64,000 nt of DNA, from NCBI GenBank assembly GCA_964565825.1, contig CAZMGK010000001.1, positions 2,052 to 66,051 of the forward strand, written 5' to 3'. This document shows, piece after piece, positions 8,056 through 64,000 of this stretch. The notes under the pieces were generated by a model. The model was not told the DNA's origin. It searched no databases and saw only the letters and a list, made by a program, of their open reading frames with translations. The translations under genes and the position numbers were made by a program. Each line of letters begins with the position of its first letter. Position 1 is the first letter of the stretch. Source of the DNA: an uncultured Candidatus Saccharibacteria bacterium. GTDB lineage: Bacteria > Patescibacteriota > Minisyncoccia > Phycocordibacterales > UBA9973.

Positions 8056-8107
8056 ACGTATATTTTATCATGGTACATGAGGTAAAATCTATTTCTGTCT
8101 AGTGTTT

Positions 8108-9057: not shown

Positions 9058-9100
9058 CTAATTAAGGACGGAAGTCTCAAGACTTCCTACTTCTAACGGG
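9058..9100 (+). promoter_or_regulatory. Conserved 43-nt leader module, CTAATTAAGGAC-GGAAGTC-tcaa-GACTTCC-TACTTCTAACGGG, ending exactly at the ATG.
   Basis: A near-identical module sits upstream of gatC (56763-56804, minus strand) and a diverged copy upstream of the 46297 gene. The hairpin stem shows compensatory changes: GGAAGTC/GACTTCC here versus GGAAATC/GATTTCC in the other two copies. Confidence 0.6.
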
Positions 9101-24497: not shown

Positions 24498-24527
24498 ATA
24501 TCTACAAAAGAATACGTATTGTTCTTA

Positions 24528-25418: not shown

Positions 25419-25435
25419 ATATTTTATTTATTATG

Positions 25436-26869: not shown

Positions 26870-26944
26870 TTTACACGTTTTGGGGTAAAAAACAAGGCGG
26901 GTTTGGCGTAGCCAAACCCGCCTTGTTAGGCAGGAATTGAGAAC

Positions 26945-27724: not shown

Positions 27725-28230
27725 AAAAATTTCTCAAAAAAAATAACTAATCCATAGGCGACGCATCCACCAAGGATAAATCCGGCTATCACATCGACAG
27801 GATAATGAACTCCATTTACTACTCGTGAGAGCATCACCAGAAGACTCAGTACCAGAGAAAGTATTCCCAAGCGGTAATCAAAATGAAACAAAAGTATTGT
27901 GAGTGCACCGTACACACTCGCATGTTCCGAGGGAAAAGAATACCCTGGTGTGGGAAACAATGGAATAATATGCGTATGAGTAACGTACGGTCGCATTACT
28001 TGGAAAATCTCCTTGCAGATGCGGGCAGTTAAAAAGCTCAAAAAACCAGATAAGAAAACAAGAGAAAACATGTACATAAAATTTTCTTTTGCCTTAAGAG
28101 AGAGTGCTATTAAAATACAGAGTGGTATGACAATAAAACTCACTGGTCCGGAAATAAACAAAGAGGTGTTTCCCAAAAGTGGGTACTTTTGACCCAGCAT
28201 GTGTAAAAATTCTAATATACTATAATTCAT
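27721..28230 (-). CDS. PAP2-family membrane phosphatase (PgpB/YbjG-like)
   Basis: Motifs KEIFQVMRP, PSEH and SRVVNGVHYPVDV (KX6RP / PSGH / SRX5HX3D). Overlaps uppP by 4 bp. Confidence 0.75.
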   Translation of the reverse strand: MNYSILEFLHMLGQKYPLLGNTSLFISGPVSFIVIPLCILIALSLKAKENFMYMFSLVFLSGFLSFLTARICKEIFQVMRPYVTHTHIIPLFPTPGYSFPSEHASVYGALTILLFHFDYRLGILSLVLSLLVMLSRVVNGVHYPVDVIAGFILGGCVAYGLVIFFEKFL

Positions 28231-29035
28231 ACGGTGTAATCAGGTTATGAAATAATGCGGTGACTGTCAAAGGGCCAATACCCCCTGGTACAGGTGTCAT
28301 ATAGAGTGCTTTTTGCATAACACTTGGTTCTACATCACCTAACACAGTACTTCCTTCTTCACTCGTCCCTGCGTCAAAAACAATCACTCCTTCTTTTACA
28401 AGATCTGACGTCAGCATATGAGCCACACCCATGCCAGAAAAAATAATATCTGCCTCTTGTACAGGATTGGGAGAAAAATTAGTTTTTGTCATTTGAACAA
28501 AAGGAATGCTGTGCATACGTAAATAATCCGCGATTGGTTTACCGACGAGTCTTCCATTTCCAAGCACACAAATTTTCTTACCAAGAAGTGAAATATCGTA
28601 CGCATCGAGCGCATAGAGCATTGCCCGAAGTACTGGTGGGTATCGTCTATTTTTATTCTCCAAAAAAGAGTGGTACGTATTTTCACTCAATATATCAATA
28701 TCCAAGCTCGGCTTGATATAGTTCACAACCGTTTTGGTATCTAAGTGCTCAGGAAGTGGTAACTGAAGGATCATACCAGATGAATCAATCTCGAGTTCTT
28801 TTATTTTTTCTTGGACAAGAGAAGCCGAACTTTCTTTTGCTAAATGGTGCACGCGTACAGAAATACCCAATCGTTCCCCAAAACGTTTTTTGGCACGGAT
28901 ATACGTTTCGATAACAGGATTATCACCAATATATAAAATATCTAATACGTACTTTTTTTGCTCAATAAGTATACGTAATGTTTCTTCTATTTCTTGTTGT
29001 ATTTTTTTACCATCTATAATCATACGTTTATTCAA
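28220..29035 (-). CDS. folD: Bifunctional methylene-THF dehydrogenase/cyclohydrolase FolD
   Basis: GKKICVLGNGRLVGKPIADYL, PVPGGIGPLTV. Confidence 0.9.
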   Translation of the reverse strand: MNKRMIIDGKKIQQEIEETLRILIEQKKYVLDILYIGDNPVIETYIRAKKRFGERLGISVRVHHLAKESSASLVQEKIKELEIDSSGMILQLPLPEHLDTKTVVNYIKPSLDIDILSENTYHSFLENKNRRYPPVLRAMLYALDAYDISLLGKKICVLGNGRLVGKPIADYLRMHSIPFVQMTKTNFSPNPVQEADIIFSGMGVAHMLTSDLVKEGVIVFDAGTSEEGSTVLGDVEPSVMQKALYMTPVPGGIGPLTVTALFHNLITPYEL

Positions 29036-30161
29036 CTCCTAAAAATTCATAATGCAAGTTATCACGATGCGTCGCCCTCCGGGTGCGATAAATAGATGAG
29101 ACAAGCCCAAGAGCGATAAATTCAGTAACTAAATGGGAACCACCGTAGCTCATAAAAGGAAGAGTGATTCCAGTAATGGGCATTATACCAATATTCATGC
29201 CGATGTTAATCAGCATGTGAGACAAGAAGAAGATAGCGATACCAACTGCTGTTAAAATCTCAAAATTTCCAGCACCATGAAGCGCTGTAGTGAGTATGCG
29301 TATAATCAAGAGAGCATACAGAACGAGCACCAGACATGCTCCAACAAAGCCCCATTCTTCTGCATAGGCAGCAAAAATAAAATCGGTTTGATATTCTGGT
29401 AGAAAATGAAGTCTGGATTGTGTCCCGTGACCAATCCCCTTGCCTAAAAATTGTCCAGATCCTACAGCAATAAGAGATTGCTTTGCATTATAGCCAGTAC
29501 CTTTTACATCAAGCGTTGGGTTAATAAAATTTTGAATTCTTTTTTTCTGATATTCTTTAAACACAAAACTCCATAGCACGACGAACAAGCTGATACCGAT
29601 AATAAAAAAGACAAAGAGGTGTTTTTTTGAGAGACCAGATACAAGAACCATACCAAACCAAATCATAAACAAAATAATAGCAGAACCGAAATCAGGTTGT
29701 AAAAAAATTAAAACAAACGGTATGATCATGTAAACCAGCGATATGAGAATATGCTTGAATCTTTTTATCTCAATATGCCTTCTTGAAAAATATTTTGCGC
29801 ACATTAAAATAACGGCAAGCTTCATCAGATCTGTTGGCTGAAAAGAAAATGCACCGAAAGAAAACCAACTCTGTGCACCTTTTACTGTATGCCCTAAAAT
29901 AAACAACACAGACAAAATCAAAACACAACATGCGTACAGATAAGAAACCGCTTGAGTCGATTTCAAAAGCTGGAAATCGATATGATGTACCGCAAAAAAA
30001 CACACAAGCGCAACTATGAGGAAAATAAGTTGTTTGTTGAAAAACAGTGCCGATTCTCCAAAAGTGTACAACGTAACGAGCGAAGAAATAGAGATGAAGA
30101 GGGCCAGACCCAATAGAGTCCAATCTACAGACGTACTATATTTTTTAAAGAAAGCAAACAT
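29028..30161 (-). CDS. SEDS-family peptidoglycan glycosyltransferase (FtsW/RodA)
   Basis: Polytopic membrane protein with FIFAAYAEEWGFVGA... and GMNIGIMPITGITLPFMSYGGSH, which are SEDS hallmarks. Confidence 0.85.
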   Translation of the reverse strand: MFAFFKKYSTSVDWTLLGLALFISISSLVTLYTFGESALFFNKQLIFLIVALVCFFAVHHIDFQLLKSTQAVSYLYACCVLILSVLFILGHTVKGAQSWFSFGAFSFQPTDLMKLAVILMCAKYFSRRHIEIKRFKHILISLVYMIIPFVLIFLQPDFGSAIILFMIWFGMVLVSGLSKKHLFVFFIIGISLFVVLWSFVFKEYQKKRIQNFINPTLDVKGTGYNAKQSLIAVGSGQFLGKGIGHGTQSRLHFLPEYQTDFIFAAYAEEWGFVGACLVLVLYALLIIRILTTALHGAGNFEILTAVGIAIFFLSHMLINIGMNIGIMPITGITLPFMSYGGSHLVTEFIALGLVSSIYRTRRATHRDNLHYEFLGVE

Positions 30162-40582: not shown

Positions 40583-41413
40583 TTAAAAATCAAAATATAA
40601 TACCGATTTTACAGTCGCCGTGTATTCTGGAGTACATCCTTGGAAACACACGCTAGACTCAACTTCAACTGCATACCGATACGGCACATCCGTCACATCC
40701 GTGAATGATAGAAATCGAAAATATTCTGATGGTGCTGTTGTTCCTGAATAGAGCGAAGCGTCAAACGCAATCAAACCGTTCTCATTATACAACATTGGGT
40801 CCGTAGCATACGCAGCATATCCGATGGTTCCAGAACCAGAAAAAGGGTTGAAATAATAATCGCACTGATTCCCTGATCCGCACGCTGTATCAATAAGAGC
40901 CAGAAAATCACTTGCACTATCACCGTCGGCGACTGCTTCTTTTTGAACAAATTTTACAAACTCAACTCCCTCTTCGGCGAGATACTGGGCTGTTAACTTT
41001 CTTTTAGTCAGATGAATATCTTGCATAGAGCTCGTACTGACCTGTGACAAGGCGGTAAACGCAATCAAGAAAATAAACAATGCAACGAGTGTTTCGATGA
41101 GGGTAAACCCCGACACCAATTTCAGGTGATTGTTCGCACAAGTAGGTGTATATTTATTCTGAGAAAAATTAAGAAAACCAAAAACGTGTTTCTTACTAAT
41201 TGGTGTGGGGGTAAACCCCGACACCAATTTCAGGTGATTGTTCGCACAAGTAGGTGTATATTTATTCTGAGAAAAATTAAGAAAACCAAAAACGTGTTTC
41301 TTACTAATTGGTGTGGGGGTAAACCCGCCTACAAATCTCACTTTATTTTTAGTTTCCACGTGCATGTTACTTTTTTGTATATTTTTTTGTAGAAAACGAA
41401 TAAATGTATTCAT
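40583..41413 (-). CDS. Type IV pilin whose 5' end carries tandem 108-bp (36-aa) modules, each recreating the prepilin cleavage site (…LKLVSG|FTPTPISKKHVFGFLNFSQNKYTPTCANNH…) before the authentic VSG|FTLIETLVALF.
   Basis: Prepilin motif SGFTLIETLVALFIFLIAF. The upstream in-frame repeats come from the DNA repeats at 41096-41330. The true translation start is uncertain. Confidence 0.75.
   Translation of the reverse strand: MNTFIRFLQKNIQKSNMHVETKNKVRFVGGFTPTPISKKHVFGFLNFSQNKYTPTCANNHLKLVSGFTPTPISKKHVFGFLNFSQNKYTPTCANNHLKLVSGFTLIETLVALFIFLIAFTALSQVSTSSMQDIHLTKRKLTAQYLAEEGVEFVKFVQKEAVADGDSASDFLALIDTACGSGNQCDYYFNPFSGSGTIGYAAYATDPMLYNENGLIAFDASLYSGTTAPSEYFRFLSFTDVTDVPYRYAVEVESSVCFQGCTPEYTATVKSVLYFDF
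41096..41330 (-). repeat. 2.1 tandem copies of a 108-bp unit, each beginning with the palindrome GGTGTGGGGG-taaa-CCCCGACACC.
   Basis: GGGTAAACCCCGACACCAAT occurs at 41101 and 41209, with a partial copy at 41317. The units are identical. Confidence 0.85.
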
Positions 41414-41414
41414 A

Positions 41415-42125
41415 TTAATCTTTTGGGGTTCTTTGCATTACTGCTGTTTGAATACTAAAAGGTATTGTGGTGTCCTCAAATGCAATAGTCCCAGCAAGGC
41501 GTATGGTGACCAAGGGTGGTTCTCGATCGGCTGACTCTGCATAGATAACAGAAAATCCTGAATTTGCTGGAATAATTGTTATGGGGCTTGGAGTTAAGCG
41601 ATTGTAATTAGCAACACTTAGAGTTGTAATATCAGGTCCAAGTGTTTTAAAGACTGACCATACACTTGTATCTGGATCTTCTGCAATCACATAGCCAACT
41701 TGGTCATCCGTGACCCCATCTTGACCCGCAACCCCCTCGAATGCCAGAGAAAGACTTGCCTGCACATCTGTCCCCGTAGTACCATCAACACAAGACTTTG
41801 GCTCTTCGATGATTGAGTTTGAATAATCACCACCTACATCACATCTAATATGTCTTCCGACACGGATATTCCTAACCATATCTTCCATAATAGCACTGAG
41901 TGTATCAAACTGTTCTTTTTGAAATTGAGTTATTTTGTATGCTCGATGCATCATCAACAGAGATGATATACCCAAAGATACAATGATCAAAAAAATAGAA
42001 CTTGAAACAAGGAGTTCTATTAAGGTAAACCCTTTTTGAGATTGTCTTTTTTTGTAATAAGAATATGGTGTCATCATGTGAAGTATGTATATAGTATAGG
42101 GTACTTTTTCTCTTTTTACTAACAA
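41415..42125 (-). CDS. Type IV pilin/pseudopilin
   Basis: KG|FTLIELLVSSSIFLIIV prepilin motif. Confidence 0.75.
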   Translation of the reverse strand: MLVKREKVPYTIYILHMMTPYSYYKKRQSQKGFTLIELLVSSSIFLIIVSLGISSLLMMHRAYKITQFQKEQFDTLSAIMEDMVRNIRVGRHIRCDVGGDYSNSIIEEPKSCVDGTTGTDVQASLSLAFEGVAGQDGVTDDQVGYVIAEDPDTSVWSVFKTLGPDITTLSVANYNRLTPSPITIIPANSGFSVIYAESADREPPLVTIRLAGTIAFEDTTIPFSIQTAVMQRTPKD

Positions 42126-42131
42126 AAGAGC

Positions 42132-42866
42132 CTACTGAGATTTCTTGATACTTAAAATACCGACCGGATTGATATTGATAGTATTTTTACCGGGTGAACC
42201 TGGTAAAATAAAAACAAGATCTACGTTACTGGTGACAGGTAAAATAGTATTTGGATTAATAGCATTTACAGACCATTCTGGATCATAGTCTTGGCGCATG
42301 CGTGCGTCCGGGTATGGACGCTTGAAAACAGTAGAGAAAGTTTCTAGATCAGCAGTGTTACATGAATCGTTCGATGGCTCATATCCTCCTTCACATATTT
42401 TATGGAGACGAATATCCTCAAAAAACATTTCTTGCATACATTCGTAGTAGTATGAATTACCACAATCAAGAACTATCCCCCCGGGGTTAATAGCAATCAG
42501 GTCATCATTAAAATTATCATAAAAAATACTCATTTTCTCAGGTGTATTTACATCGAAATATATTCCGTAGGCGGGTTTCCATGCTGGAAGTGGGTATTCT
42601 TTTAACCCTGGATCAATATCGGGTAATTTTCCCGCCAACGCATTGTGCTGTTGTTCTTTGATAAGAAGTGCGACCTCCTGGACTGCAACAGTAAAATCAG
42701 TATTGTTTTTAAATGCGTCAAAGTTAAAAAGCACAATACCAGCCATCATACTAAAAATAGATATCACCACAATCATTTCCATTACCGTAAAACCAGCTTG
42801 CTGTGTAGGTGCAATCACAACATGTTCTCGTGACTTTGACCTATTTTTTTTAAAAAATGCAAACAT
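42132..42866 (-). CDS. Type IV pilin-like protein (minor pilin/pseudopilin)
   Basis: AG|FTVMEMIVVISIF N-terminal methylation-type segment. Confidence 0.65.
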   Translation of the reverse strand: MFAFFKKNRSKSREHVVIAPTQQAGFTVMEMIVVISIFSMMAGIVLFNFDAFKNNTDFTVAVQEVALLIKEQQHNALAGKLPDIDPGLKEYPLPAWKPAYGIYFDVNTPEKMSIFYDNFNDDLIAINPGGIVLDCGNSYYYECMQEMFFEDIRLHKICEGGYEPSNDSCNTADLETFSTVFKRPYPDARMRQDYDPEWSVNAINPNTILPVTSNVDLVFILPGSPGKNTININPVGILSIKKSQ

Positions 42867-42869
42867 ATA

Positions 42870-43679
42870 TTAAAAATGAGTTGTTAGTATTTGAGTAATA
42901 GTGATGGAGAACAGAAATACAAAAAATATCGCGGTACACATGAACGGTCCAAATGGAACATGGCTTTTAAGCGTCGTCTTTTTGCGCAACAGTAACATAC
43001 CAATACCCCAAAGACCACCGATCCAAAAAGACACGAGAACTGCTGCGAAACCACCCGTGATACCAAGCAACCACCCCATTCCAAGAGCAAGCTTTACATC
43101 ACCAAAACCCATCGCTTTTCCACCGGTGACCCACCACAAGAAAAAGAAAGGCAGTGCAATAAGTGGTCCAGCAAGTACTGACCACAAAGATGGGAGGTGG
43201 ATAGCATAGCTCATACCCGTAAATATGAAAAGAGAAAGAAAAGCCAAAATATTAAACAGCCAAACAAATGTGTCTGGAATAATATTGTGATGATAATCGT
43301 ACACAGAAATAACAATCAAGATACAAAAAATGTAGGTAAAAAATATAAGCGGGAAAAAAGACATCCAACTAAAAGAGTACATAAGGGTGGTATCTGGGAG
43401 AAATTTAATAAAGAGAGAAACAAATACAAAACCAGTGATTGCTTCAACAAGTGGATACTGCCACGAAATTTTTGAAGCACAGCCTTTGCACTTACCCCTC
43501 TGACTCAAGAAGCTCGCAATCGGTACGAGCTCGTGCCAAGAAAGTGTCCGACGGCAGGTAAAACAAAAAGAACGTCCGCCAAGACCACGCCCTGTATTGA
43601 ATCTATAAATGACCACATTCAAAAATGAACCGATGACTGTCCCGAGTAAAAAAACAAAAATTCCGTAGATTTCAAACAT
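42870..43679 (-). CDS. pilD: Prepilin peptidase (A24 family, PilD/TadV-like)
   Basis: Polytopic membrane protein with an N-terminal CxxC...CxxC zinc motif (CFTCRRTLS...CKGCASKIS) and conserved A24 blocks. Confidence 0.85.
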   Translation of the reverse strand: MFEIYGIFVFLLGTVIGSFLNVVIYRFNTGRGLGGRSFCFTCRRTLSWHELVPIASFLSQRGKCKGCASKISWQYPLVEAITGFVFVSLFIKFLPDTTLMYSFSWMSFFPLIFFTYIFCILIVISVYDYHHNIIPDTFVWLFNILAFLSLFIFTGMSYAIHLPSLWSVLAGPLIALPFFFLWWVTGGKAMGFGDVKLALGMGWLLGITGGFAAVLVSFWIGGLWGIGMLLLRKKTTLKSHVPFGPFMCTAIFFVFLFSITITQILTTHF

Positions 43680-43751
43680 GCTTTTAGTATACCTAGAAAT
43701 AGGTAAAGGGTAAAGGATTTGACTGTGTATACAAACACAGACACACTCTTT

Positions 43752-44432
43752 TTAAGGATTACATTCTGTTTCTTGTTGTTGCAGATGATACGTTGTGCTT
43801 TGCCCAGAAAAACCAGTCGAATCGATACAAAAAGCAATATTAAAGTCTGTTTTTAATGGAGAAGAAACACCCCAGAGCGTTCCCGTAGGATGATTGTCAT
43901 GGCACACGGATAAAAGTCGATACCCAGCTGTTTCATAATCTGTTGAATACCATGGAAATGGATTATTGGAAAGTCTCGCTGCTTCTGCCAAAAAAGCTTC
44001 AACTTCAACACTATCGCACATATAGCTGTAGCTATTATTTTCTTGGTAATAAATATATGATTGTTTTTTAATTCCATCAAGAGCGGCTTTGATGGCTGCG
44101 TCACGTGCCCTATCTCGAGCATTCGTTAAACGAGGAATAATAATACCTGCAAGAATACCAATAATTGCAATCACAATGAGGAGCTCGATGAGGGTAAACC
44201 CCGACACCAATCGCAACAGACGCTGACGCCCTTTTTTGGTATGATGAGTCATCAGACGAGTAAGAAAACCGAATGGGTTATTTTTTAGGATTGGTGTGGG
44301 GGTAAACCCCGACATCAATCGCAACAGACGCTGACGCCCTTTTTTGGTATGATGAGTCATCAGACGAGTAAGAAAACCGAATGGGTTATTTTTTAGGATT
44401 GGTGTGGGGGTAAACCCCGACACCAATTTCAT
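43752..44432 (-). CDS. Type IV pilin with tandem 36-aa N-terminal modules (MKLVSG|FTPTPILKNNPFGFLTRLMTHHTKKGRQRLLRL x2) before the authentic VSG|FTLIELLIVIAIIG. The ORF track extends it to 44639; the ATG at 44432 (MKLVSG) is the more likely start.
   Basis: Prepilin motif SGFTLIELLIVIAIIGILAG. The modules are homologous to those of 40583..41413 and have the same 108-bp period. Confidence 0.75.
   Translation of the reverse strand: MKLVSGFTPTPILKNNPFGFLTRLMTHHTKKGRQRLLRLMSGFTPTPILKNNPFGFLTRLMTHHTKKGRQRLLRLVSGFTLIELLIVIAIIGILAGIIIPRLTNARDRARDAAIKAALDGIKKQSYIYYQENNSYSYMCDSVEVEAFLAEAARLSNNPFPWYSTDYETAGYRLLSVCHDNHPTGTLWGVSSPLKTDFNIAFCIDSTGFSGQSTTYHLQQQETECNP
44187..44432 (-). repeat. Three copies, at a 108-bp period, of GGGTAAACCCCGACACCAAT... 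carrying the GGTGTGGGGG-taaa-CCCCGACACC palindrome.
   Basis: Copies begin at 44192, 44300 and 44408. Units are near-identical (one has ACATC for ACACC). Confidence 0.85.
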
Positions 44433-44576
44433 ATACTTTTTTTTAAGGAGAGCACTTTTTTGTTTCAAAAAATGTTTTTTTGTACTAAAAACTTTTTGTT
44501 TTTTCTTTTTTAATCTTTTAACAATACTTCTATCTTTGTTAAAAATTTTGGTGTTTGAATTTGTATGTGGGGTTTT

Positions 44577-44611
44577 TGTTGGGGGAGGCCTACGGCCTCC
44601 GCCAACAAACA
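44577..44611. promoter_or_regulatory. Imperfect 16-nt-arm palindrome TTTGTTGGGGGAGGCC-tac-GGCCTCCGCCAACAAA in the divergent pilin/RNase II-R region; candidate operator.
   Basis: Single C/G mismatch in the G/C run, the same kind of mismatch as in the GGTGTGGGGG/CCCCGACACC palindrome. Confidence 0.35.
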
Positions 44612-44722
44612 CCCCCAAAAACACTACCGAAAAACACATACCAAGAGCACCCTCTTTATGCTACACTATAGTCGTGATTAAACCTCAAAAAACAGAAGCC
44701 GAAATACTCGAACGTCGAGAAT

Positions 44723-46224
44723 ACAAAAAAGAAATGCGCATGATTGCCAGAAATCCTGACCTAATTACCTTCCCTGCACATATCAAAGAAGAGCTCGCGA
44801 ATATTCCTGAAACAATTACAGGTGCTGAAATAAAAAATCGCCGTGATTTTCGACATATTGCAACATGTACTATTGACCCAGATGACGCAAAAGATTTTGA
44901 CGATGCGATTTCGTTTCTTGTGCTTCCAGATGGAACAAAAGAAATTGGTATCCACATCGCGGATGTTGGACACTACGTACAGGAAAAAACAAAACTTGAT
45001 AAAGAAGCTTACAAACGTGGGACGTCTATCTACCTCACCAACACGGTTGTGCCGATGTTGCCAGAAAAAATATCAAACGACGTTTGTAGTCTCAAGGAAA
45101 AAGTCGACAGACTTACGTTCTCTGTCGTGGTTATATTCGACAAGAAAGATACCATCATCCACACATGGTGCGGAAAAGGTATTATTCATTCAAATAAACG
45201 ATTCACTTATAGCGGGGCACAAAAGGTAATAGACGACAAAGCTGGAATCTATGCCGAGGAACTTTTAGAACTCAAACGTATTTCAGGTACTCTTATGAAA
45301 AAACGTGAACGAGACGGAGCGCTCTTCCTCGAAGACACAGAAATTCGATTTACCTATGACCAGGACGGCAACCCAATTGGGGTACAACAAAAAGTCCGCC
45401 TCGATACGATGAAACTCGTCGAAGAATTTATGCTTTTAGCAAACAGGACAGTTGCAGAACAATTTACCAAAGATGAGCCATTTGTCTATCGTATCCACGA
45501 CAACCCTGACCGAGAAAAACTCAATGCACTCCATGACCACGGACGAGAATACGGTATCGAGATTCCAAAAAAACTCGACAACCATACACTCAATCACTTG
45601 ATACAGAGTATAGAGAATGAAGACTTGCGTTCACATTTCTCAAAAATAATTATGCGCAGTATGGCGAAAGCAGTCTATTCAAGTAACAACATCGGACACT
45701 ATGGATTGGCGTTCGATCAGTATACACATTTCACTTCCCCTATCAGACGGTATCCAGACCTCATTGCACACAGACTGCTTTTAGATAAACTCCAACATAA
45801 ACAAAAACCTATTGATGTACGTGAATTTGAAAAAAAGCTCATCTACCTGTCGACCTGTGAAAGAAAAGCTCAAGACATCGAACGTGCAAGCACCAAAGAC
45901 ATGCAGATAAAATACATGGGAAATTTTCTAGGTATGGAACGTACTGGTGTTGTCACCGGCCTCACTGAAATCGGTATATACGTTTCTGACAAAGAATCAC
46001 TCTCGGAAGGTTTCATCCACCAAAGAACTCTCGGCCGAGACTGGAAATGGAATGACAAACAACTCTTCTGGAAAAACGAAAAAATTGGTAAAATAAAAAT
46101 GGGAGATCATATTACATTCAAAGTTGAGAAAGTAAATTTTGACAAAGGTTTTATCGATTATAGTTTATGCAATCCCGTTAGAGATACACAAACTACTATC
46201 TCAATGAGACACAGTAAAAAATAG
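44723..46224 (+). CDS. rnr: RNase II/R-family 3'-5' exoribonuclease (RNB domain + C-terminal S1). The ORF track starts it at 44404, but the first 100 codons overlap pilin repeat DNA; the likely start is the ATG at 44723 or the GTG at 44673.
   Basis: RNB motifs (IDPDDAKDFDDAISF, HFTSPIRRYPDLIAHR) plus an S1-like C-terminus. Confidence 0.8.
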
Positions 46225-46253: not shown

Positions 46254-46296
46254 TTAATAATAAAACGGAAATCTTTGATTTCCTGTCGTAAGCGGG
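46254..46296 (+). promoter_or_regulatory. Third, diverged copy of the conserved leader module (…ACGGAAATC-tttg-GATTTCC-TGTCGTAAGCGGG-ATG).
   Basis: The 19-nt CGGAAATCTTTGATTTCCT is identical to the gatC copy, and the ATG spacing is the same. Confidence 0.55.
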
Positions 46297-48657
46297 ATGC
46301 AAGAAAAATTAGAACTTTTTAAAATACATTGGAATGATTTTCGTGCTTTTTTAGCAGAACATCGCAGAAGCATGATACTATGGATATTTGCATGTGTCTG
46401 TCTTTTTGTCATTGCTCCCTTCGTCTATTCATATATTTCTTTTAATCAAAAATTTGGTGATAGAAACACATCGCAATCAGAGCACATAGAAACACCGACT
46501 CATACACTCGAACAGATTCAAGAAATTATCGAACCAGAACGTATTGTATTTGAAAAAATTGCAGAAGAGTCTTTTCTTCCTCCACAAAAAGGAAAAATGA
46601 TTCGTGTCAATTTGTACACCATGACACTCAAGCAATACGAAAATGGGACGCTTGTTGGTTCAAAAAAGATACTCAGTAAAGCAGTTAAAGGAAGCCTCTG
46701 GGAAATCCCGAGTGGAAGTTATCCTATTTCTAACTCTAACGAAGACTACTACTCGACAAATGTTGGAGCGTGGATGCCGTATGCTATTAACTTATTCGGA
46801 AATTATTTTATTCACGGAGAGCCACACGACGCCAAAGGACGAACACTTCCCCTCTCTTTCAAAAATGGAGGTATCAGACTCAACACAACAGATGCACGAG
46901 CGTTGTTTGATTGGACAGACCCAGATACGCGTATCTCGGTCTATAGTGACAGCACCCTTGTACCTGCTCCTATTTCAGCAGAATCAGTCTATGTATCTGC
47001 CGATGGAACCATTAAACCTAAAGTCAGTGCAGAAGCATACATTGTTGCGGACATAGATACAGGTGAAATTATTCTCCAAAAAGACAAAGACGTACCGTAC
47101 GCTATTGCATCTACGACAAAACTCATGACTGCTGTGGTATCAGTAGAAAATCAAAATCAATTTGATTATGCAACAGTATCAAAAAAGGCAATCGACACGT
47201 ATGGTTTCTCTGGATATGTGCCAGGAGAAAAAATAGAACTTTCAAATTTACTCAATCCGCTTCTACTTCCCTCTTCAAATGACGCAGCAGAAATTATTGC
47301 CGAGCATTTTAACCGGACCCAGTTTCTTGCAAAAATGAATGGAAAAGCAACAGAGCTTGGTATGGATAACACAACGTTTGAAGATGCAAGCGGACTTTCA
47401 GCGAATAATAAAGCATCAGCCCACGATCTCTTCAGACTCGCGCAATATATTACTCATGAAAAACCATTTATTTGGGATATTACAAAAAGACGTGTGTACA
47501 GTGCTCAAGGTCACACTGCAAAAAATATCAGTCAATTTTTAAATGATAAAAATCTCATTGGATCAAAACCTGGCTTTACGTATGAAGCAAAACAATCAAA
47601 CGTCGGAGTCTGGGAATTACAACTCTCTGAGATCACCAAACGAAAAATTGCAATCATCATCCTGCGGTCAAATGACCGGTATCGTGACACACAAAATATA
47701 CTCTCCTATCTTAAAAAACAAGTTATCTACGGCCGTGATGGAAGGTTTGTTATTTCTGGGCCAAAAAACAAAGACAAAGAACTGAGTATGCGTTTTACCG
47801 GTGACATTATGCTTGATCGCGGTGTGCGATATTCTGTCAATAAAAATTTTAATGGTGACTACACAAAACTTTTCACCAATCTTGATTCGTACAAAGATGC
47901 TGATATTTTCTTTGCTAATTTAGAAGGACCAGTGTCTGATAAAGGAAAGGATTCAAAAAACATGTACTCATTTCGTATGGAACCACGCATACTGCCAATG
48001 CTTCAAGATGTAGGTCTCGATATTGTCTCATTTGCAAATAACCATGTTGGAGACTGGGGCCTCGAAGCATTTTCTGATTCACTCTCTCAATTAGAACAAG
48101 CAAACATTGCGTATACGGGGGCTGGGATGAAGTTTGAAGATGCGCGTGAACCAACAATTATTGAACGTAAAAATATGAAGATCGGATTTCTTGGTTTTTC
48201 AGATGTTGGGCCGTCATGGTTACACAACACAGAAACAGAAGGCTACGGTATCAACAAACTAGACACAGACACCTTTAATGAACTTGTCTCCAGCGCAACA
48301 AAAAAAGTCGACGTTCTTATCGTGTCAGTCCATTGGGGTGCAGAATATTCCACCACTACTGAAAGGCAACGAGAATTTGCACATCGAGCAATAGATAGTG
48401 GTGCAAAAATTGTCGTCGGTCACCATCCTCATGTCGTCCAACCACTAGAAGTCTACAAAGGAGGTCTTATCGCGTATAGCCTAGGGAATTTTATTTTCGA
48501 TCAAGGATTCTCAAAAGATGTCATGCGTGGGCTGACCCTTGAAGTTCTGATTGATACAGATGAAAAGTACATTAAACAATACAACACCTATATCACAGAA
48601 CAGAACGCGTACTTTGTCCCAGGTGCCCCTTTTAAAGAAAGAGTACTCGAGGAATAA
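46297..48657 (+). CDS. Tri-domain cell-envelope fusion protein: a YkuD (L,D-transpeptidase)-like domain whose catalytic Cys appears replaced (…KNGGIRL…), a serine-type D-Ala-D-Ala carboxypeptidase (S11/DacA-like, SxxK = ASTTKLMT), and a CapA/PgsA-like metallophosphatase domain.
   Basis: N-terminal TM. HG...NGGIRL in place of the usual SHGC(I/V)R. AYIVADIDTGEIILQKDKDVPYAIASTTKLMT. CapA motifs DIFFANLEGP, FANNHVGDWG, VHWGAEY, VVGHHPHVVQP. Confidence 0.8.
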   Translation: MQEKLELFKIHWNDFRAFLAEHRRSMILWIFACVCLFVIAPFVYSYISFNQKFGDRNTSQSEHIETPTHTLEQIQEIIEPERIVFEKIAEESFLPPQKGKMIRVNLYTMTLKQYENGTLVGSKKILSKAVKGSLWEIPSGSYPISNSNEDYYSTNVGAWMPYAINLFGNYFIHGEPHDAKGRTLPLSFKNGGIRLNTTDARALFDWTDPDTRISVYSDSTLVPAPISAESVYVSADGTIKPKVSAEAYIVADIDTGEIILQKDKDVPYAIASTTKLMTAVVSVENQNQFDYATVSKKAIDTYGFSGYVPGEKIELSNLLNPLLLPSSNDAAEIIAEHFNRTQFLAKMNGKATELGMDNTTFEDASGLSANNKASAHDLFRLAQYITHEKPFIWDITKRRVYSAQGHTAKNISQFLNDKNLIGSKPGFTYEAKQSNVGVWELQLSEITKRKIAIIILRSNDRYRDTQNILSYLKKQVIYGRDGRFVISGPKNKDKELSMRFTGDIMLDRGVRYSVNKNFNGDYTKLFTNLDSYKDADIFFANLEGPVSDKGKDSKNMYSFRMEPRILPMLQDVGLDIVSFANNHVGDWGLEAFSDSLSQLEQANIAYTGAGMKFEDAREPTIIERKNMKIGFLGFSDVGPSWLHNTETEGYGINKLDTDTFNELVSSATKKVDVLIVSVHWGAEYSTTTERQREFAHRAIDSGAKIVVGHHPHVVQPLEVYKGGLIAYSLGNFIFDQGFSKDVMRGLTLEVLIDTDEKYIKQYNTYITEQNAYFVPGAPFKERVLEE

Positions 48658-48756
48658 GACCTAGTATAGTATGGTCTCGCTGTACATTCTGAAACCCTGG
48701 ACAACACGATACGAGCGTGGGTAAGAGGCGTGATGCAAGTTACAGAAAACAGAAAA

Positions 48757-48795
48757 AGAGCGGAACAACTACGTTGTTCCGCTCTTTTGATTTGT
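48757..48795 (+). terminator. Terminator AGAGCGGAACAA-ctac-GTTGTTCCGCTCT + TTTGATTTG.
   Basis: 13-bp stem plus T-rich tail after the 46297 gene. Confidence 0.7.
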
Positions 48796-49008: not shown

Positions 49009-49506
49009 TTACCAGAAAATGCGAGCACCTTTATAGACTACGGTACCACTAGCGATCTGCATAAGTTCTAAACGAATACTCCCCTCACCTACGGTGAGAT
49101 GGAGCGCATATCGTATCGGTGTAGTACTCACACTCTTTTGATTTGTGTAGACAAATACATCATGATGTGTGGATATATCATCTACCGTAGCAAGAAACTG
49201 TGTCAAAAAAACAACGGCCTTACTAGCTGTAACTTTAAAGGGAGTTACTCCGTCTTCATCACTCATAGAGTGCTCAATAAAATCTCGAACGATATCAACG
49301 TGTTTTTGAACTTTCGTGACTTCCATAAGAAGTTTTGGCATATATACGGCATGAGATTCTTGACTCTCTCTATCTAGGAGATTTTCAATGGAGGTCGTCG
49401 TAATATCTAGTTTTTTCAAATTTGGTGCACACAATGCAACTTTTTCAAACTTGCGTAACAAAATATGTGTAACAGGTACTTTTTTTTTAAAGAAATACTG
49501 GGCCAT
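49009..49506 (-). CDS. Hypothetical protein
   Basis: 165-aa ORF; no recognisable motifs. Confidence 0.45.
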   Translation of the reverse strand: MAQYFFKKKVPVTHILLRKFEKVALCAPNLKKLDITTTSIENLLDRESQESHAVYMPKLLMEVTKVQKHVDIVRDFIEHSMSDEDGVTPFKVTASKAVVFLTQFLATVDDISTHHDVFVYTNQKSVSTTPIRYALHLTVGEGSIRLELMQIASGTVVYKGARIFW

Positions 49507-49660: not shown

Positions 49661-51928
49661 TTATTTGGCGTATTCTTCTGCCTCTGTAAACTTAATAGAG
49701 AGTAGTTTTGATGCGCCATCGGCTGACACAGTCACTCCATAGAGTATTCCCGCACGTGACATGGTTTCTCTGTTGTGAGTCACCACAACCAGTTGCGATA
49801 CTTTGGAGAGATTTTCAATCATATCTCCATAGCGTCTTGAATTAGCTTCATCGAGAGCTGCGTCTGTTTCATCAAGTACCAAAAATGGTGGTGGGTTAAC
49901 CTGAGACATAGCAAACAACAGTGCGATAGACGTAAGTGATCGTTCTCCACCTGAGAGCATGCCGAGTTCTTTTACTTTCTTCTGAGGGAGAGATACATGA
50001 ATATCAATACCACGTTCAAATTCCATTTCGGTTTCATTATCTTGGGGTATGGCGATATCTTCACTCTCTTCTTCGTCTTTTCTTTTTCTTCTGTGTTCTG
50101 TAGACAAAGACAATGAGGCGGTTCCACCACCAAACATCAAAGAAAAGAACTGGGCAAAAGAATCATTGATTTTCAAAATACCTGTCTTAAATTCAGAATC
50201 AAGTCTCAGTTTCAAGTCAGCAATCAATGCTCGTAATTCTGAAATAGATCTCTCGAGGTCAGACAATTCTGTTGCCAAAAATACATCTCGTTCTTGTGTT
50301 GCCTCGTATTCTTTCATTGTATCACTACCGCCAAGTCCACCTGACTCTTCTAATTTTATTTTTACTCGTTCAATTTTTCGGCGTATTTCATCTTGACGCG
50401 TCGCATCTATTTCTTGTACTGGGTGTTCTTTGGGCGTATACGTTGGCATATCAGAGCCCAATAGAGCTAATCCTTCACGGAGTTCGTTTTCAAAAAATTC
50501 TTCTTTACTGTGAATACGTGATTCCTCGCTCGTCAAATTTTGTAAATGAATGTGTAGTGCTTCTTTTTTACTCAAAACTTCGTAATACTCTTTGTCTGCA
50601 TATACACGCTGTGTACGCTCTTCGGACATTTTTTGCTCAATTTCTGCGCGCTCTGATACAAGTGTACTTGTTTCAAATTCAAGTACTTTAATTTTTTCCT
50701 CAATAACATTAATATCTTGATCTATTTTTTGTATATGCTCTGTATTATCTATTGCTTCTGGTGTAACCTCAGTGTCTTCTAGATATTCACTATTTTGAAC
50801 AATATGAAGCTGTGCATCACGAGCAGTGTTATGTATAAAAGAAATATCTGTAGATTGGACAATAGATACGAGTCTCGTTGTGATTTCATTAAATGTTTTT
50901 TTGACCAGACTGTGCGGAATAAATTTTTCTCGATACTCTACCGGTTTTGGTTTTTCTAATAGCGCTTCTTTTGTTCCTTCTAGTCTCCCTAACGAACGCT
51001 CGAGTTCATTCTTGAGGCGATTATGCTCGTGTATTGAATGCAACACAGCATCATAGTGCGATTGAAAGAGAGATGTCGTAACTGCTGTTCTGTTTTGCTC
51101 AAGCGTATGCAACAGATCAGTTACAGTATTGTATGATATGTGCATCTCTTGCTTCTTATGTAAAAAAGTTTCTTTCAAATCAGTTATATGCTGATACTCA
51201 TGTTGAATATACTCAGTGTACAAATCCATTAATTCAAAACGGAGGTTTGCTGCTTTTTCTATTTTCTCAACTTGTTTTTTGAGATACAAGAGATGTGGTG
51301 CGAGCTCGCGTTTGAGTGCTTGTATCTCTTTTATATTCGTCTCTGTTCTGTCAAGACGTCGTTCTGTTTCTTTTATTCTAAATTGGTATATCTTGAGACC
51401 GAGAGCGTCTTCTATCATAACGCGTCTATCGCGAGAATTTGCAGAAAGTATTCTATCGGCTTCACCTTGTGAAATAATATGATGACCAGATGCACCAATA
51501 TTCACAGAAGAAAGAAGCTCGATAATATCTTTGAGTCGTACTTCGGTGTCATTTATTTTATACGTATTTGCACCATCAGAAAAGACTTCACGACTAATGC
51601 GGACTTCGTCATATGACAGTAATTTTGTTTTTGTATCACTCGTATCACCAAAAGTGAATAGCTTTTTCCGATTATCAAATGTAATGGTTACTGATGCTCG
51701 AGATAGCGGAGGAAGTTGTTTGGAACCTTTAAAGATGAGGTCACTCCCCCCTTTACCGCGGAGAGATTTAATAGATTGTTCACCGAGCACAAAACGAATT
51801 GCTTCAACCACGTTTGATTTACCTGAACCGTTGGGACCAACAATACCTGCCACAGGAGAGTCAAAAACCAAAACAGTCTTTTTTGCAAAAGACTTAAAAC
51901 CTGCTAATTCTATACTCTTCAAAACCAT
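49661..51928 (-). CDS. smc: SMC-family chromosome-segregation ATPase (short form, 755 aa)
   Basis: N-terminal Walker A (GPNGSGKSN), long coiled coil, C-terminal signature LSGGERSLTSIALLFA and Walker B FLVLDETDAALD. Conserved rnc-smc adjacency. Confidence 0.8.
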   Translation of the reverse strand: MVLKSIELAGFKSFAKKTVLVFDSPVAGIVGPNGSGKSNVVEAIRFVLGEQSIKSLRGKGGSDLIFKGSKQLPPLSRASVTITFDNRKKLFTFGDTSDTKTKLLSYDEVRISREVFSDGANTYKINDTEVRLKDIIELLSSVNIGASGHHIISQGEADRILSANSRDRRVMIEDALGLKIYQFRIKETERRLDRTETNIKEIQALKRELAPHLLYLKKQVEKIEKAANLRFELMDLYTEYIQHEYQHITDLKETFLHKKQEMHISYNTVTDLLHTLEQNRTAVTTSLFQSHYDAVLHSIHEHNRLKNELERSLGRLEGTKEALLEKPKPVEYREKFIPHSLVKKTFNEITTRLVSIVQSTDISFIHNTARDAQLHIVQNSEYLEDTEVTPEAIDNTEHIQKIDQDINVIEEKIKVLEFETSTLVSERAEIEQKMSEERTQRVYADKEYYEVLSKKEALHIHLQNLTSEESRIHSKEEFFENELREGLALLGSDMPTYTPKEHPVQEIDATRQDEIRRKIERVKIKLEESGGLGGSDTMKEYEATQERDVFLATELSDLERSISELRALIADLKLRLDSEFKTGILKINDSFAQFFSLMFGGGTASLSLSTEHRRKRKDEEESEDIAIPQDNETEMEFERGIDIHVSLPQKKVKELGMLSGGERSLTSIALLFAMSQVNPPPFLVLDETDAALDEANSRRYGDMIENLSKVSQLVVVTHNRETMSRAGILYGVTVSADGASKLLSIKFTEAEEYAK

Positions 51929-61234: not shown

Positions 61235-62539
61235 TTATTTCAAAACCTCATCCCCTATTTCATAGGCTTCACCTGCACCCATAGTAATAATGACATCCTT
61301 ATCGGTCAGTGTTTCTTTTTTGTTTTTCAAATATGTTTTTGCTTCATCAAATGACAATGCTTGAATATTTTCTTGTTGGATGGCTTTTGCGAGAATTTCA
61401 GAACTGATTGATCCATCATCTACTTCGCGTGCTCTAAATATCGGCAAAAGGATCAGCTCATCTGCATCAGCAAAACAAGTCGTAAATTCAGTAAAGAGGG
61501 CTTTTGTTCGAGAAAATAAATGCGGTTGGAAAAAGACGTGGAGTTTGTACTCACCTTTTGGAAATTTCTCTCGAAATGCTTGGAGACTGGCTCTGACTTC
61601 AGTCGGATGATGCGCATAGTCGTCATACACAAGCGTACCAGTGGTAGTCTTCCCTTTATACTCAAACCGACGCCATGTTCCAGGAAAGGTCGCGAGTGCT
61701 GTATCAACAGCCTCTTTTTCGTAGCCGAGCAAGTGCCCGACACAGTATGCGAGGGTTGCATCAACTTGGTTATGTCTTCCAGGAATCGTCAGTACACGCT
61801 CAAAGAGATACTCTTTGTAATCCACAACAGTACAGACGACATTTTTTATAATATCCTGCACATCTGTATTTGCAGGATCACAGACAACGTATCCATCTTG
61901 CGGAACTTTTTCAACGAGAGTTTTGTATGCACTTTTTATATCATCGAGATCTTTGTAATAGTCGACATGGTCGAGGTCGATATTGGTAATAAGGACGATA
62001 TTTGGATGAAGGTTGAGAAATGCACGATGGTATTCATCGGCTTCTACGACAAAGTACTTACTCTTACCTTGAATAAAATTTGACTGTGTTCCTTGTAAGA
62101 AACTTCCGATGACGACGGTTGGATCGGCACCGAGTCCCATCAACATGTGAGCAACCATACCAGTTGTTGTTGTTTTCCCATGTGAACCAGAAACAGCAAT
62201 CGTATACATATCTTTTGAAACGAGTCCGAGCATTTCTGGATAGACAAGAGATGGGGTAGTGAGAGCTTTGATAGCTTTCAAAAATTCTGGTTCGAGGACT
62301 TCAATAGCCCGAGAGTAGACGATCAGGTCAGTGTCAGCGGGTATTGCGTCAATGCTCTGCCCAATAGTTACCACGGCGCCGAGCTCGCGCAAATGTGCGA
62401 TATTCTCACTATCTTTTGTATCCTGACCAACAACCACTTTCCCCGCTTCTATCATCATCCGCGCAATCGCCGAAATACCGATACCACCAATACCGTAAAA
62501 AAAGACTTTTTTAAGTTGTGAGACTTCTCTATTTTCCAT
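61235..62539 (-). CDS. murC: UDP-N-acetylmuramate--L-alanine ligase MurC
   Basis: N-terminal Rossmann FYGIGGIGISAIA; ATP-binding GSHGKTTTTGM. Confidence 0.9.
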   Translation of the reverse strand: MENREVSQLKKVFFYGIGGIGISAIARMMIEAGKVVVGQDTKDSENIAHLRELGAVVTIGQSIDAIPADTDLIVYSRAIEVLEPEFLKAIKALTTPSLVYPEMLGLVSKDMYTIAVSGSHGKTTTTGMVAHMLMGLGADPTVVIGSFLQGTQSNFIQGKSKYFVVEADEYHRAFLNLHPNIVLITNIDLDHVDYYKDLDDIKSAYKTLVEKVPQDGYVVCDPANTDVQDIIKNVVCTVVDYKEYLFERVLTIPGRHNQVDATLAYCVGHLLGYEKEAVDTALATFPGTWRRFEYKGKTTTGTLVYDDYAHHPTEVRASLQAFREKFPKGEYKLHVFFQPHLFSRTKALFTEFTTCFADADELILLPIFRAREVDDGSISSEILAKAIQQENIQALSFDEAKTYLKNKKETLTDKDVIITMGAGEAYEIGDEVLK

Positions 62540-62540
62540 A

Positions 62541-63903
62541 CTATTTTAATTCCTTAATAATCTTTTCAAATTGATCACCGCGGTCGTATTCATTTTTAAA
62601 CATACCAAAAGACGTAAAGCCTGGAGAAAATAAAACAATACTTCCTTTTGTTGCACGAGTGAGGGCTTGCTTAACTGCATCTTTGAGTGTCTTTGAGTTG
62701 GTATAGGTACCTTGTTGTAATACAGAAGTGAGTTCATTAGTTCCTGTACCAGGAAGCATTACTACTTCACCTGCGTATTTGGAAATAAGTTTTGGTAAGT
62801 TTCCAAGTGGAATATGTTTAGTTGTACCACCAGAAATCAGTACGATATGTTTGTCAGGGAAAGACTGTAATGCAACAGAGAGTGCAGATGGTGTTGTTGA
62901 GCACGTGTCATTATAGATAGAAATACCTTTATAATTCCGAACAAATGAAAGCCGTCCTTCAACTCCTTTGAAACTCTCAAATCCTTTTTTGATATCAACA
63001 CCCTTTAATCCATATGCACGGAGTGCTTCATACGCACACGCAGCGTTTTCTCTGTTATGTTCACCTGGAATAAGGAGATGCCAATTTTTTGGGATATTAT
63101 TCACCTCAGCTTTAACAAGAGTTCCTCTTGGTTTGAGTTTTTTTATTTTTGTATACACAGAGTCACCAGCAACACAGACGTCACCTTTTTTCTGATAGCT
63201 GACGATATGAGACTTGTCGAGGAAATATGCATCCATTGAACCTTTGTAATAATTCAAGTGATCCTCCATGAAATTTGTAAATACAGATATAGTCGGAGAA
63301 ATTTTTGCATCACCAAATCCTTGCAACTGCCAAGATGAAAGCTCGAGCACGAGCGTGTCGCCACTTTTAATAGTTTTCAAAAGTGGAAGCACTGCAGTCC
63401 CTTTGATATTACCACCGAGGAACACACGGTGTTTCTCCCTCTCCTGCCGAGGTGTGGGTTGGGGTGAGGTAGTGTATTTCTTAAGTGTGTGATAGATGAG
63501 CATCGTCGTTGTTGTCTTTCCACGTGTTCCGGTCACACCAATAACTGTGACGTCTTTCGGCGCAAGCTTCAAAAAAAGTGATTCATCCATTTCTACTGGA
63601 ATACCTTTTTTTTGTGCGTGTGCAATATACACGGAGTCGAGTGGAGTACCCTGTCCTTTTAAAACAAAGTCACAATCCTCGAAATCAGCTAGATCATGCC
63701 CACCTAGATGATAGGTGATGTTTTTATAGTTTTTAAGTTGAGCTAACGCTTCTGCCAATTCTTTTTTGGTTTTGAGATCAGTCACGAGTACCTGCGCACC
63801 ACAATCAGAAAAAAACTTGATACATTCAATACGCTTCCCTAAAAGTCCGAGCCCAAGGACGGTTATTTTCTTACCTTCAAAATAGTCTGCGTATCCTTTC
63901 ATG
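62541..63903 (-). CDS. murD: UDP-N-acetylmuramoylalanine--D-glutamate ligase MurD, with a 12-aa insertion after the P-loop. The ORF track extends it to 63995, but the likely start is MKGYADYFEGKKITVLGLG at 63903.
   Basis: KKITVLGLGLLGKR N-terminus; GVTGTRGKTTTT P-loop; insertion TTSPQPTPRQERE encoded by a repeat element. Confidence 0.85.
63437..63480. repeat. 45-nt element CCCTCTCCTG...GTTGGGGTGAGGT.GT.TATTT shared with the intergenic hairpin at 58081-58125; here it is inserted in-frame in murD.
   Basis: CCCTCTCCTG and GTTGGGGTGAGGT are identical in both places. Confidence 0.45.
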
Positions 63904-63913
63904 CACAGAGTAT

Positions 63914-63989
63914 ACCCCGACACCCATATTTTTACAATTTGTTTAAAGTAGTAGGATATTTGTAATAAAAACATATAGGTGTGGGGGTA
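63914..63989. repeat. GC-clamp hairpin element CCCCGACACC-CATATTTTTA...AATAAAAACAT-GGTGTGGGGG upstream of murD; paralogous to the rnpB P3 hairpin and to the pilin-associated palindrome.
   Basis: Shared termini CACC(C/T)ATATTTTTA and AATAAAAACAT..GGTGTGGGGG with 32895-32965. Confidence 0.5.
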
Positions 63990-64000
63990 TATCATAAAAA

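Follow-up and report, generated by a model that had tools for sequence, protein, structure and literature searches.

Class C low-molecular-weight penicillin-binding proteins (PBPs) of the S11 family, which include E. coli PBP5/DacA and PBP7/PbpG, B. subtilis DacB and Streptomyces K15, share a common fold and the motifs SxxK, SxN and K-x-G. YkuD-type L,D-transpeptidases, such as B. subtilis YkuD, E. faecium Ldtfm and M. tuberculosis LdtMt2, are likewise recognised by a common fold, a catalytic His and a G-x-I-R-L strand. PGA_cap proteins include the CapA/PgsA type, which is membrane-anchored and outward-facing, and MslH, the Ca(II)-dependent C-terminal Trp epimerase of the lasso peptide MS-271 (8gq9). 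Here we describe a gene that joins representatives of all three families, at positions 46297-48657 (+) of a 64-kb stretch of Patescibacteria DNA (contig CAZMGK010000001.1), the whole of which we call the window. The Patescibacteria, or Candidate Phyla Radiation (CPR), are a large and mostly uncultured group whose genomes are small and whose ways of building and remodelling the cell wall are poorly understood.

Comparison with these systems revealed both shared hallmarks and clear departures. The S11 domain of the window protein resembles those of PBP7 and K15 in lacking the C-terminal beta-sandwich of PBP5, whereas it differs from the class C PBPs in reading KPG for KTG, in lying mid-protein and in being anchored by an N-terminal transmembrane (TM) helix instead of a C-terminal amphipathic helix. 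Unlike the YkuD-type enzymes, the protein carries Gly in place of the catalytic Cys, and the preceding His of SHGC is also gone (KNGG here, SGGC in Cys-containing relatives). A YkuD domain coupled to a D-Ala-D-Ala peptidase is also present in 4xxt, but the partner there is a Zn DD-carboxypeptidase-family domain of the VanY type, whereas here it is a serine S11 peptidase. The PGA_cap domain, predicted to face outward as in CapA/PgsA and matching seven of the eight MslH site residues, differs from both MslH and CapA in being fused to peptidoglycan peptidases, with no PgsB/PgsC or lasso-peptide genes nearby. The direct relatives are Patescibacteria proteins of S11+PGA_cap (~620-650 aa) and YkuD+S11 (~430-540 aa) composition, which are 45-50% identical to it in the shared S11/PGA_cap domains. 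The S11+PGA_cap relatives occupy the same chromosomal slot, and the window protein differs from them in having three modules, of which the YkuD module lacks its Cys.

We propose, with a probability of roughly 0.6, that the gene encodes a membrane-anchored extracytoplasmic enzyme acting on peptidoglycan stem peptides, in which the YkuD-like domain would serve as a non-catalytic binding module, and that it operates outside the poly-gamma-glutamate capsule system.

Domain architecture of the fusion protein

The gene is an intact open reading frame (ORF) with an ATG start and 786 codons for amino acids in the program-made ORF list, and an identical protein (P0001) is present in public protein data. 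All three Pfam matches exceed their curated cut-offs: YkuD (PF03734; aa 101-215, E 1.9e-6, 29.0 bits against a cut-off of 23.4, model positions 3-146 of 146), Peptidase_S11 (PF00768; aa 240-436, E 1.2e-35, 123.5 bits against 27.6) and PGA_cap (PF09587; aa 499-736, E 1.3e-71, 241.5 bits against 27, model positions 3-255 of 255). These matches bear out an earlier model-made annotation of the DNA, here called the sequence-only reading, which had assigned three such domains to one 786-aa protein. The full-length AlphaFold2 (AF2) model (mean predicted local distance difference test (pLDDT) 88.9, predicted template modelling score 0.72) comprises a long N-terminal helix, a linker and three compact domains. 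In Foldseek searches of the Protein Data Bank (PDB), it matches best 3mfd (DacB of B. subtilis) and 8gq9 (MslH, an epimerase of lasso peptides).

The membrane anchor named in the same reading was recovered as a single predicted TM helix at aa 25-47 (46369-46437 (+); SMILWIFACVCLFVIAPFVYSYI), with a Kyte-Doolittle maximum of 2.6 over 19 aa and an overlapping helix at aa 23-54 in the AF2 model. Because HRR stands just before this sole hydrophobic helix, the positive-inside rule would place the N terminus inside and all three domains beyond the membrane. The helix is followed by a linker at aa 57-79 (46465-46533 (+)) that is predicted to be disordered (pLDDT <50) and is poorly conserved (identity 0.18). 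No paralogue occurs in the 64-kb window, where the three domain profiles match only this ORF. Judged by its domain matches, the fusion joins known families, with a PGA_cap domain welded to a predicted DD-peptidase in a housekeeping-like Patescibacteria gene.

Residue 192 and the fate of the YkuD-like domain

Since YkuD gave the weakest of the three Pfam matches, we checked the assignment of this domain (aa 101-215; 46597-46941 (+)) independently. A profile of the N-terminal domain, built from 23 homologous sequences and searched against solved L,D-transpeptidases with HMMER, recovered 5bmq (E 8e-10), 4xxt (8e-6) and B. subtilis YkuD (6e-4). The domain was modelled confidently both in isolation (AF2 pLDDT 86.8) and in the full-length protein (pLDDT ~90 over aa 90-220), and the top 50 PDB matches of the domain model were all L,D-transpeptidases, led by 5bmq (E 2e-8, TMq 0.67), consistent with the YkuD beta-sandwich.

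The strings FIHGEP...KNGGIRL and ASTTKLMT are both present in the translation. The segment nGgIRL aligns with sHGCvnL of 5bmq, SHGCIRL of 4xxt and SKGCIRM of B. subtilis YkuD (1y7m/2mtz), and the profile alignment to 5bmq, 4xxt, 2mtz and 1y7m places Gly192 at the position of the catalytic Cys. Its codon, GGT (46870-46872), is one base from TGT. His173 (codon 46813-46815), within IHG, aligns with the catalytic His of B. subtilis YkuD, also within IHG, corresponds to the catalytic His of the H-x(14-17)-[S/T]-H-G-C-h-[R/N] motif and is invariant in the family. The suspected replacement of the YkuD Cys was thus located at a defined residue. Because the nucleophilic Cys is replaced by Gly192, the domain is, as judged from this alignment, a structural member of the family and not a thioester-forming transpeptidase. 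An assembly error or a pseudogene as the source of the Cys-to-Gly change was judged unlikely and rejected, given the intact ORF and the 12 other clusters of the same subclade (P0002-P0013), which derive from other assemblies, are 70-79% identical and all have Gly at position 192.

Homologues were collected from 5.8 billion proteins clustered at 90% identity. Tri-domain proteins form 45 clusters in this collection, 43-100% identical to the query, and the next-ranked matches are hundreds of S11+PGA_cap proteins of ~620-650 aa, those with names being recorded as 'CapA family protein' of Patescibacteria, Nomurabacteria, Paceibacterota or Minisyncoccia. A scan of GTDB species representatives with the YkuD-like domain profile yielded 134 loci, 80 of which were kept for analysis; by profile, ~34 of these 80 encode YkuD+S11+PGA_cap and ~46 encode YkuD+S11. 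All but one of the 80 carry either Patescibacteria-type titles (Paceibacterota, Parcubacteria, Nomura-, Vogel-, Taylor-, Ryan-, Sung-, Giovannoni-, Kaiser- and Campbellbacteria) or uninformative ones ('bacterium', 'uncultured bacterium'), the exception (L066) being titled Candidatus Humimicrobiaceae. Many bulk records of metagenome-assembled genomes bear the putative label 'uncultured Candidatus Saccharibacteria'. In a library of 1.84 billion representatives, the YkuD subfamily numbers 113 at E <= 1e-30 and 538 at E <= 1e-10; the best 150 comprise 118 YkuD+S11 proteins, 11 tri-domain proteins and 21 with the YkuD profile only, many of these last being short. As judged from these searches, the tri-domain fusion is common in Patescibacteria and not a one-off, and the YkuD+S11 arrangement is commoner still. 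Neither the fusion in CPR bacteria nor its Cys-less subclade was found described in the literature searched.

Cys is the rule in the wider subfamily. Reading residue 192 by hmmalign in the best 150 representatives (50% clustering) revealed Cys in 143. Among 44 tri-domain clusters, Cys is kept in seven (SGGCIRL, AGCIRL) and replaced by Gly in 23, Asp in eight, Ala in five and Ser in one. It is absent from 12 of the 80 GTDB loci, namely the ten closest to the window protein (L002-L011) and two others. In a neighbour-joining tree built from the S11 and PGA_cap domains only, the Cys-containing proteins are basal, and one Cys-containing pair (P0014/P0015) is sister to the subclade of the window protein, whose members all have Gly. 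Because this pair nests within the Cys-less clade, Cys was lost several times or regained once. By these alignments, Cys loss marks a minority clade with Gly, Ala, Asp or Ser at the position.

Sequence comparison within the Cys-less clade indicated that loss of the nucleophile was not followed by loss of constraint. Mean pairwise identity is 0.58 for the YkuD-like domain, 0.63 for S11 and 0.62 for PGA_cap, compared with 0.20 for the TM region and 0.18 for the linker; His173, Gly191 and Arg194 are invariant, and the G-x-[IV]-R motif is intact. The YkuD-like domain thus appears to be under purifying selection and is as conserved as the two enzyme domains, which argues for a retained function other than thioester formation. 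Binding of stem peptides is the simplest candidate for such a function, and a plausible one.

The same measurements bear on the possibility that the domain is a functionless, decaying relic ahead of deletion, leaving S11+PGA_cap as the functional unit. Positional orthologues without a YkuD domain do exist, and Cys has been lost at scattered points of the tree, one pair that retains it lying inside the Cys-less clade. However, the identity of the domain is on par with that of the enzyme domains and three times that of the linker, its fold is confidently predicted over aa 90-220, and the 37 Cys-less clusters contain no frameshifts or truncations. We regard a relic as rather improbable.

Invariant residues raise a different alternative, in which the YkuD-like domain remains an enzyme through another nucleophile or general base (His173 with Ser153 or Glu136, or Asp/Ser192 elsewhere in the family), giving the protein three activities. 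His173, Arg194 and several Ser/Glu residues are invariant in the Cys-less clade, including Ser153 and Glu136, which could in principle support another reaction, and the eight Asp clusters and one Ser cluster offer a possible nucleophile at position 192 itself. A protein of the YafK/YkuD fold, Lpg1514, has been reported to turn over beta-lactams in a Ser/His-dependent, Cys-independent manner (PMC13400389). Yet the reported Ser-dependent activity (Ser132) is weak, the Gly of the window protein and its 12 closest relatives and the Ala of others are not nucleophilic, and the occurrence of four different residues (G/A/D/S) at position 192 is the behaviour of a site freed from catalytic constraint. 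On balance, continued catalysis by this domain seems unlikely.

The invariant Ser153 and Glu136 and the Lpg1514 precedent nevertheless count against our preferred reading of a non-catalytic binding module, as does the derivation of stem-peptide binding by the Cys-less domain from conservation only; a further adverse point is the S11 motif that reads KPG in place of KTG, with a middle residue that varies in the family. The sequence-only reading had suggested a dead transpeptidase acting as a binding domain. The Cys is indeed lost, and binding is plausible given the signs of purifying selection, but 'dead' covers thioester chemistry only, because the activity of Lpg1514 needs no Cys (PMC13400389).

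The S11 and PGA_cap domains and their proposed substrate

The S11 domain, a DD-peptidase of the PBP5/PBP7 type by Pfam and PDB comparison, extends over aa 240-475 (47014-47721 (+)) with the motifs S272-T-T-K275, S326-S-N328 and K424-P-G426. Of 120 homologues, 119-120 share S272, K275, S326, N328, K424 and G426. Residue 425, the middle of the KTG motif (aa 424-426, 47566-47574), is Pro here, varies among S/P/R/G/T/L in the tri-domain clade and is nearly always Ser in the S11+PGA_cap proteins; this variability may reflect altered recognition of the substrate carboxylate. Sequence matches in the PDB were 3mfd (DacB), 4k91 and 1nzo, and Foldseek aligned the domain with 3mfd (E 7e-21, root mean square deviation 2.3 over 241 columns), a penicillin-binding fold.

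The label 'DacA-like' given to this domain by the sequence-only reading proved too specific, because no PBP5 C-terminal domain (PBP5_C) was detected in the 786-aa protein and the top-scoring NCBIfam model is a PBP7-type endopeptidase (74.6 bits, far under its cut-off of 294). The scores of all S11 equivalog models in NCBIfam likewise fall far under their cut-offs.

The PGA_cap domain (aa 499-736; 47791-48504 (+)) is of the CapA/PgsA/MslH type with a calcineurin-like fold, as supported by Pfam, the alignment to MslH and Foldseek (8gq9, E 6e-20). Its conserved residues are D503, N541, E543, N582, H583, D586, H679, E683, H710 and H712. Seven of eight MslH residues are matched (D503=D11, E543=E44, N582=N87, H583=H88, D586=D91, H679=H259, H712=H295), and these seven are invariant or nearly so in 120 homologues. 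A counterpart of the MslH metal ligand His261 is absent, and the family has HWGxEY at that place. With their motifs in this state, the S11 and PGA_cap domains are both probably active.

In MslH, the listed residues form a Ca(II) site and two catalytic His/Asp dyads, and the enzyme is a peptide epimerase, not a phosphoesterase (PMC10406935); the assignment of the window domain as a phosphoesterase consequently finds no backing in the characterised relative of this fold. Besides MslH, no biochemically characterised PGA_cap-fold enzyme was found in the literature searched. The MslH authors proposed that CapA itself is a peptide epimerase, and the role of CapA in poly-gamma-glutamate synthesis is not established (PMC8179263). 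We found no literature that settles CapA/PgsA function (PgsA structure/function, Rv0574c). The window protein is not an MslH equivalog by score, matching NF038314 only partially and at 78.8 bits against a cut-off of 700, and no lasso-peptide genes lie near the ORF.

The strong PGA_cap match, together with database names of the form 'CapA family protein', could also place the gene in a capsule, poly-gamma-glutamate or other surface-polymer pathway, in which S11 and YkuD would anchor the polymer to peptidoglycan. L,D-transpeptidase-family enzymes do attach proteins to peptidoglycan (PMC12729407). However, no gene resembling PgsB (a Mur-ligase-like amide ligase) or PgsC was found in the four syntenic neighbourhoods with Pfam calls or among the Pfam-scanned ORFs of the window, which represent part of the genome, and the neighbouring genes are housekeeping genes. 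Moreover, the module that would do the attaching is a YkuD domain without its nucleophile here and is absent from many orthologues, and the unestablished role of CapA in polymer synthesis noted above (PMC8179263) argues in the same direction. We consider a surface-polymer function very unlikely, and the designation 'capsule/polymer module' is not upheld by these neighbourhoods.

The window itself encodes a set of peptidoglycan genes at 23469-30161 (-) and 61235-63995 (-), comprising a protein with PG_binding_1 and a C39-like peptidase, UppP/BacA, a PAP2 phosphatase, FtsW/RodA, a MurC-like ligase and MurD. Because the MurC-like ligase, MurD, FtsW/RodA, UppP and the PG_binding_1 peptidase are encoded there, the host makes peptidoglycan.

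Under the proposed stem-peptide enzyme, S11 would trim D-Ala-D-Ala ends or cut 4-3 cross-links, leaving tetrapeptide stems. L,D-transpeptidases need tetrapeptide donors, and DD-carboxypeptidases are known to provide them (PMC12729407). In Cys-containing ancestors or sisters, the YkuD domain probably takes these S11-made tetrapeptides for 3-3 cross-linking as an L,D-transpeptidase. In the window protein, the YkuD-like domain, unable to form the thioester, would bind or position stems for the other two domains, and PGA_cap would catalyse a further metal-dependent reaction at a stem residue whose alpha-carboxylate is free, for which MslH-like epimerisation is the only precedent.

A more specific and decidedly speculative version, which we think unlikely to be correct as stated, makes PGA_cap an extracytoplasmic metal-dependent epimerase of peptidoglycan stems. 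It would act on one of two residues whose alpha-carboxylate is free, the C-terminal D-Ala that S11 uncovers or a gamma-linked iso-Glu. S11+PGA_cap would form a two-step 'trim and invert' editor of wall stereochemistry, and the stem would be held by the Cys-less YkuD domain. By analogy, such an enzyme would share its substrate logic with MslH, which acts on a C-terminal residue, and with CapA as proposed, which would act on gamma-linked Glu. To our knowledge, epimerisation of peptidoglycan after assembly has not been described.

Chromosomal slot, leader element and surrounding window

The gene occupies a conserved chromosomal slot. Its 5' neighbour is an rnr-like gene for an RNB-family exoribonuclease (44404-46224 (+); Pfam RNB and S1), a position conserved in four related loci (L082, L084, L085 and L086). 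The order is rnr and then the gene on one strand, followed on the opposite strand by genes for an SMC-like protein, RNase III and a NusB-NUDIX protein, with a small ORF convergent with the gene. The slot is shared by a Cys-less relative (P0030, L084), a Cys-containing relative (P0045, L082) and YkuD-less S11+PGA_cap proteins (P0104, L085; P0093, L086). Because gene order is common to all these neighbourhoods, the occupants are positional orthologues: a single conserved core gene whose YkuD module looks active in some genomes, is disarmed in others and is missing from the rest. The 'unusual combination' perceived from the single sequence thus gave way, once its spread was surveyed, to a conserved syntenic S11+PGA_cap core gene in which YkuD occurs with Cys, occurs without Cys or is absent.

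A second association of PGA_cap with wall-modifying modules is present in a Nomurabacteria metagenome-assembled genome (MAG; L013), where a gene for PGA_cap and a polysaccharide deacetylase (1857-3764 (+)) lies directly upstream of a YkuD+S11 gene. Separately, another MAG (L063) carries a gene for Memo-like and PGA_cap domains (817-2601 (+)) ~1 kb upstream of a YkuD+S11 gene.

Downstream of the gene, a terminator scan identified a 16-bp perfect palindromic hairpin with T-runs on both strands (48754-48788), which is probably a bidirectional terminator between the gene and the convergent ORF at 49009-49506 (-). In the scan for sigma-70 promoters and terminators around the gene, counts equalled the shuffled expectation and only this palindrome stood out.

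Upstream, a leader block (46266-46299 (+)) consists of a hairpin (GGAAATCTTTGATTTCC; 46267-46283) with a 7-bp stem (GGAAATC/GATTTCC) and a TTT loop, then 13 nt ending in CGGG, and the ATG. The block, ending in CGGGATG, recurs at 9069-9103 (+) before a Thioredoxin_4 ORF and at 56793-56760 (-) before a gatC-like ORF. These other two copies share a whole 44-nt block (TAATTAAGGACGGAARTCT..AGAYTTCCTACTTCTAACGGGATG), and the copy at the tri-domain gene shares the hairpin and the CGGGATG end. One compensatory stem change (A-T to G-C) separates copies. The exact hairpin pattern was seen twice against 0.31 matches expected by chance (5 of 100 shuffles reach two), and the 20-nt tail common to the other two copies has a chance expectation of 0.01. 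Predicted folding energies of the copies range from -8 to -12 kcal/mol (z -0.6 to -2.4), with -8 kcal/mol and z = -0.6 for the copy at 46267-46283. An Rfam scan of the whole window reported no family at gathering score, and hence none for the leader.

The leader block is a real repeated element of this genome. The sequence-only reading had described the gene as driven by a conserved hairpin leader; the recurrence within the genome, in three copies, is confirmed, but in none of 18 related loci (L002-L019) was the block found ahead of the gene, which in those loci adjoins or almost adjoins rnr, and a link to driving the gene is not supported. A role of the hairpin as a family-specific regulator of the gene was rejected on this absence from the 18 loci, its folding energy being unremarkable.

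Several further observations concern the neighbouring genes. In the ORF for the RNB exoribonuclease (44404-46224 (+)), RNB and S1 are the only domains recognised, and the initial ~110 residues do not look like coding sequence, whereas orthologues in related genomes measure 638-689 aa and have N-terminal OB_Dis3/CSD2 domains; the window copy may be N-terminally truncated. A 108-nt tandem duplication (44189-44404, 98% identical) lies in the 5' region of a pilin ORF (43752-44639 (-)) and overlaps the annotated start of this RNB ORF on the opposite strand; through it, a degenerate prepilin N terminus (..MSGFTPTPILKNNPFGF..MTHHTKKGRQRLLRL) is repeated ahead of the genuine N_methyl motif. Four N_methyl (type IV pilin-like) genes and a prepilin peptidase (A24) occupy 40583-44639 (-), immediately upstream of the region studied. 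On the other side, the SMC-like protein (49661-51928 (-)) has 755 aa, with Pfam SMC_N over residues 3-740, and its relatives have 710-757 aa; canonical SMC proteins are much longer, at ~1100-1200 aa.

At the far end of the window, an ORF of at least 2688 aa (1-8064 (-)) runs off the window start, with a GC content of 0.45-0.50 compared with ~0.38 elsewhere. Within it lie tandem repeats of 180/360 nt at 5789-6529 and two exact repeat copies spaced by 942 nt (6038, 6980), and it looks like a giant repetitive surface protein.

Collectively, the conserved S11+PGA_cap gene offers a testable setting for the biochemistry of the CapA/PgsA family outside capsule synthesis, and the annotation 'CapA family protein / capsule biosynthesis' is probably misleading for these genes. 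The presence of YkuD with Cys, without Cys or not at all in one gene constitutes a natural series on the L,D-transpeptidase fold deprived of its nucleophile. If the PGA_cap domain were indeed a stem-peptide epimerase, it would represent a new kind of peptidoglycan modification.

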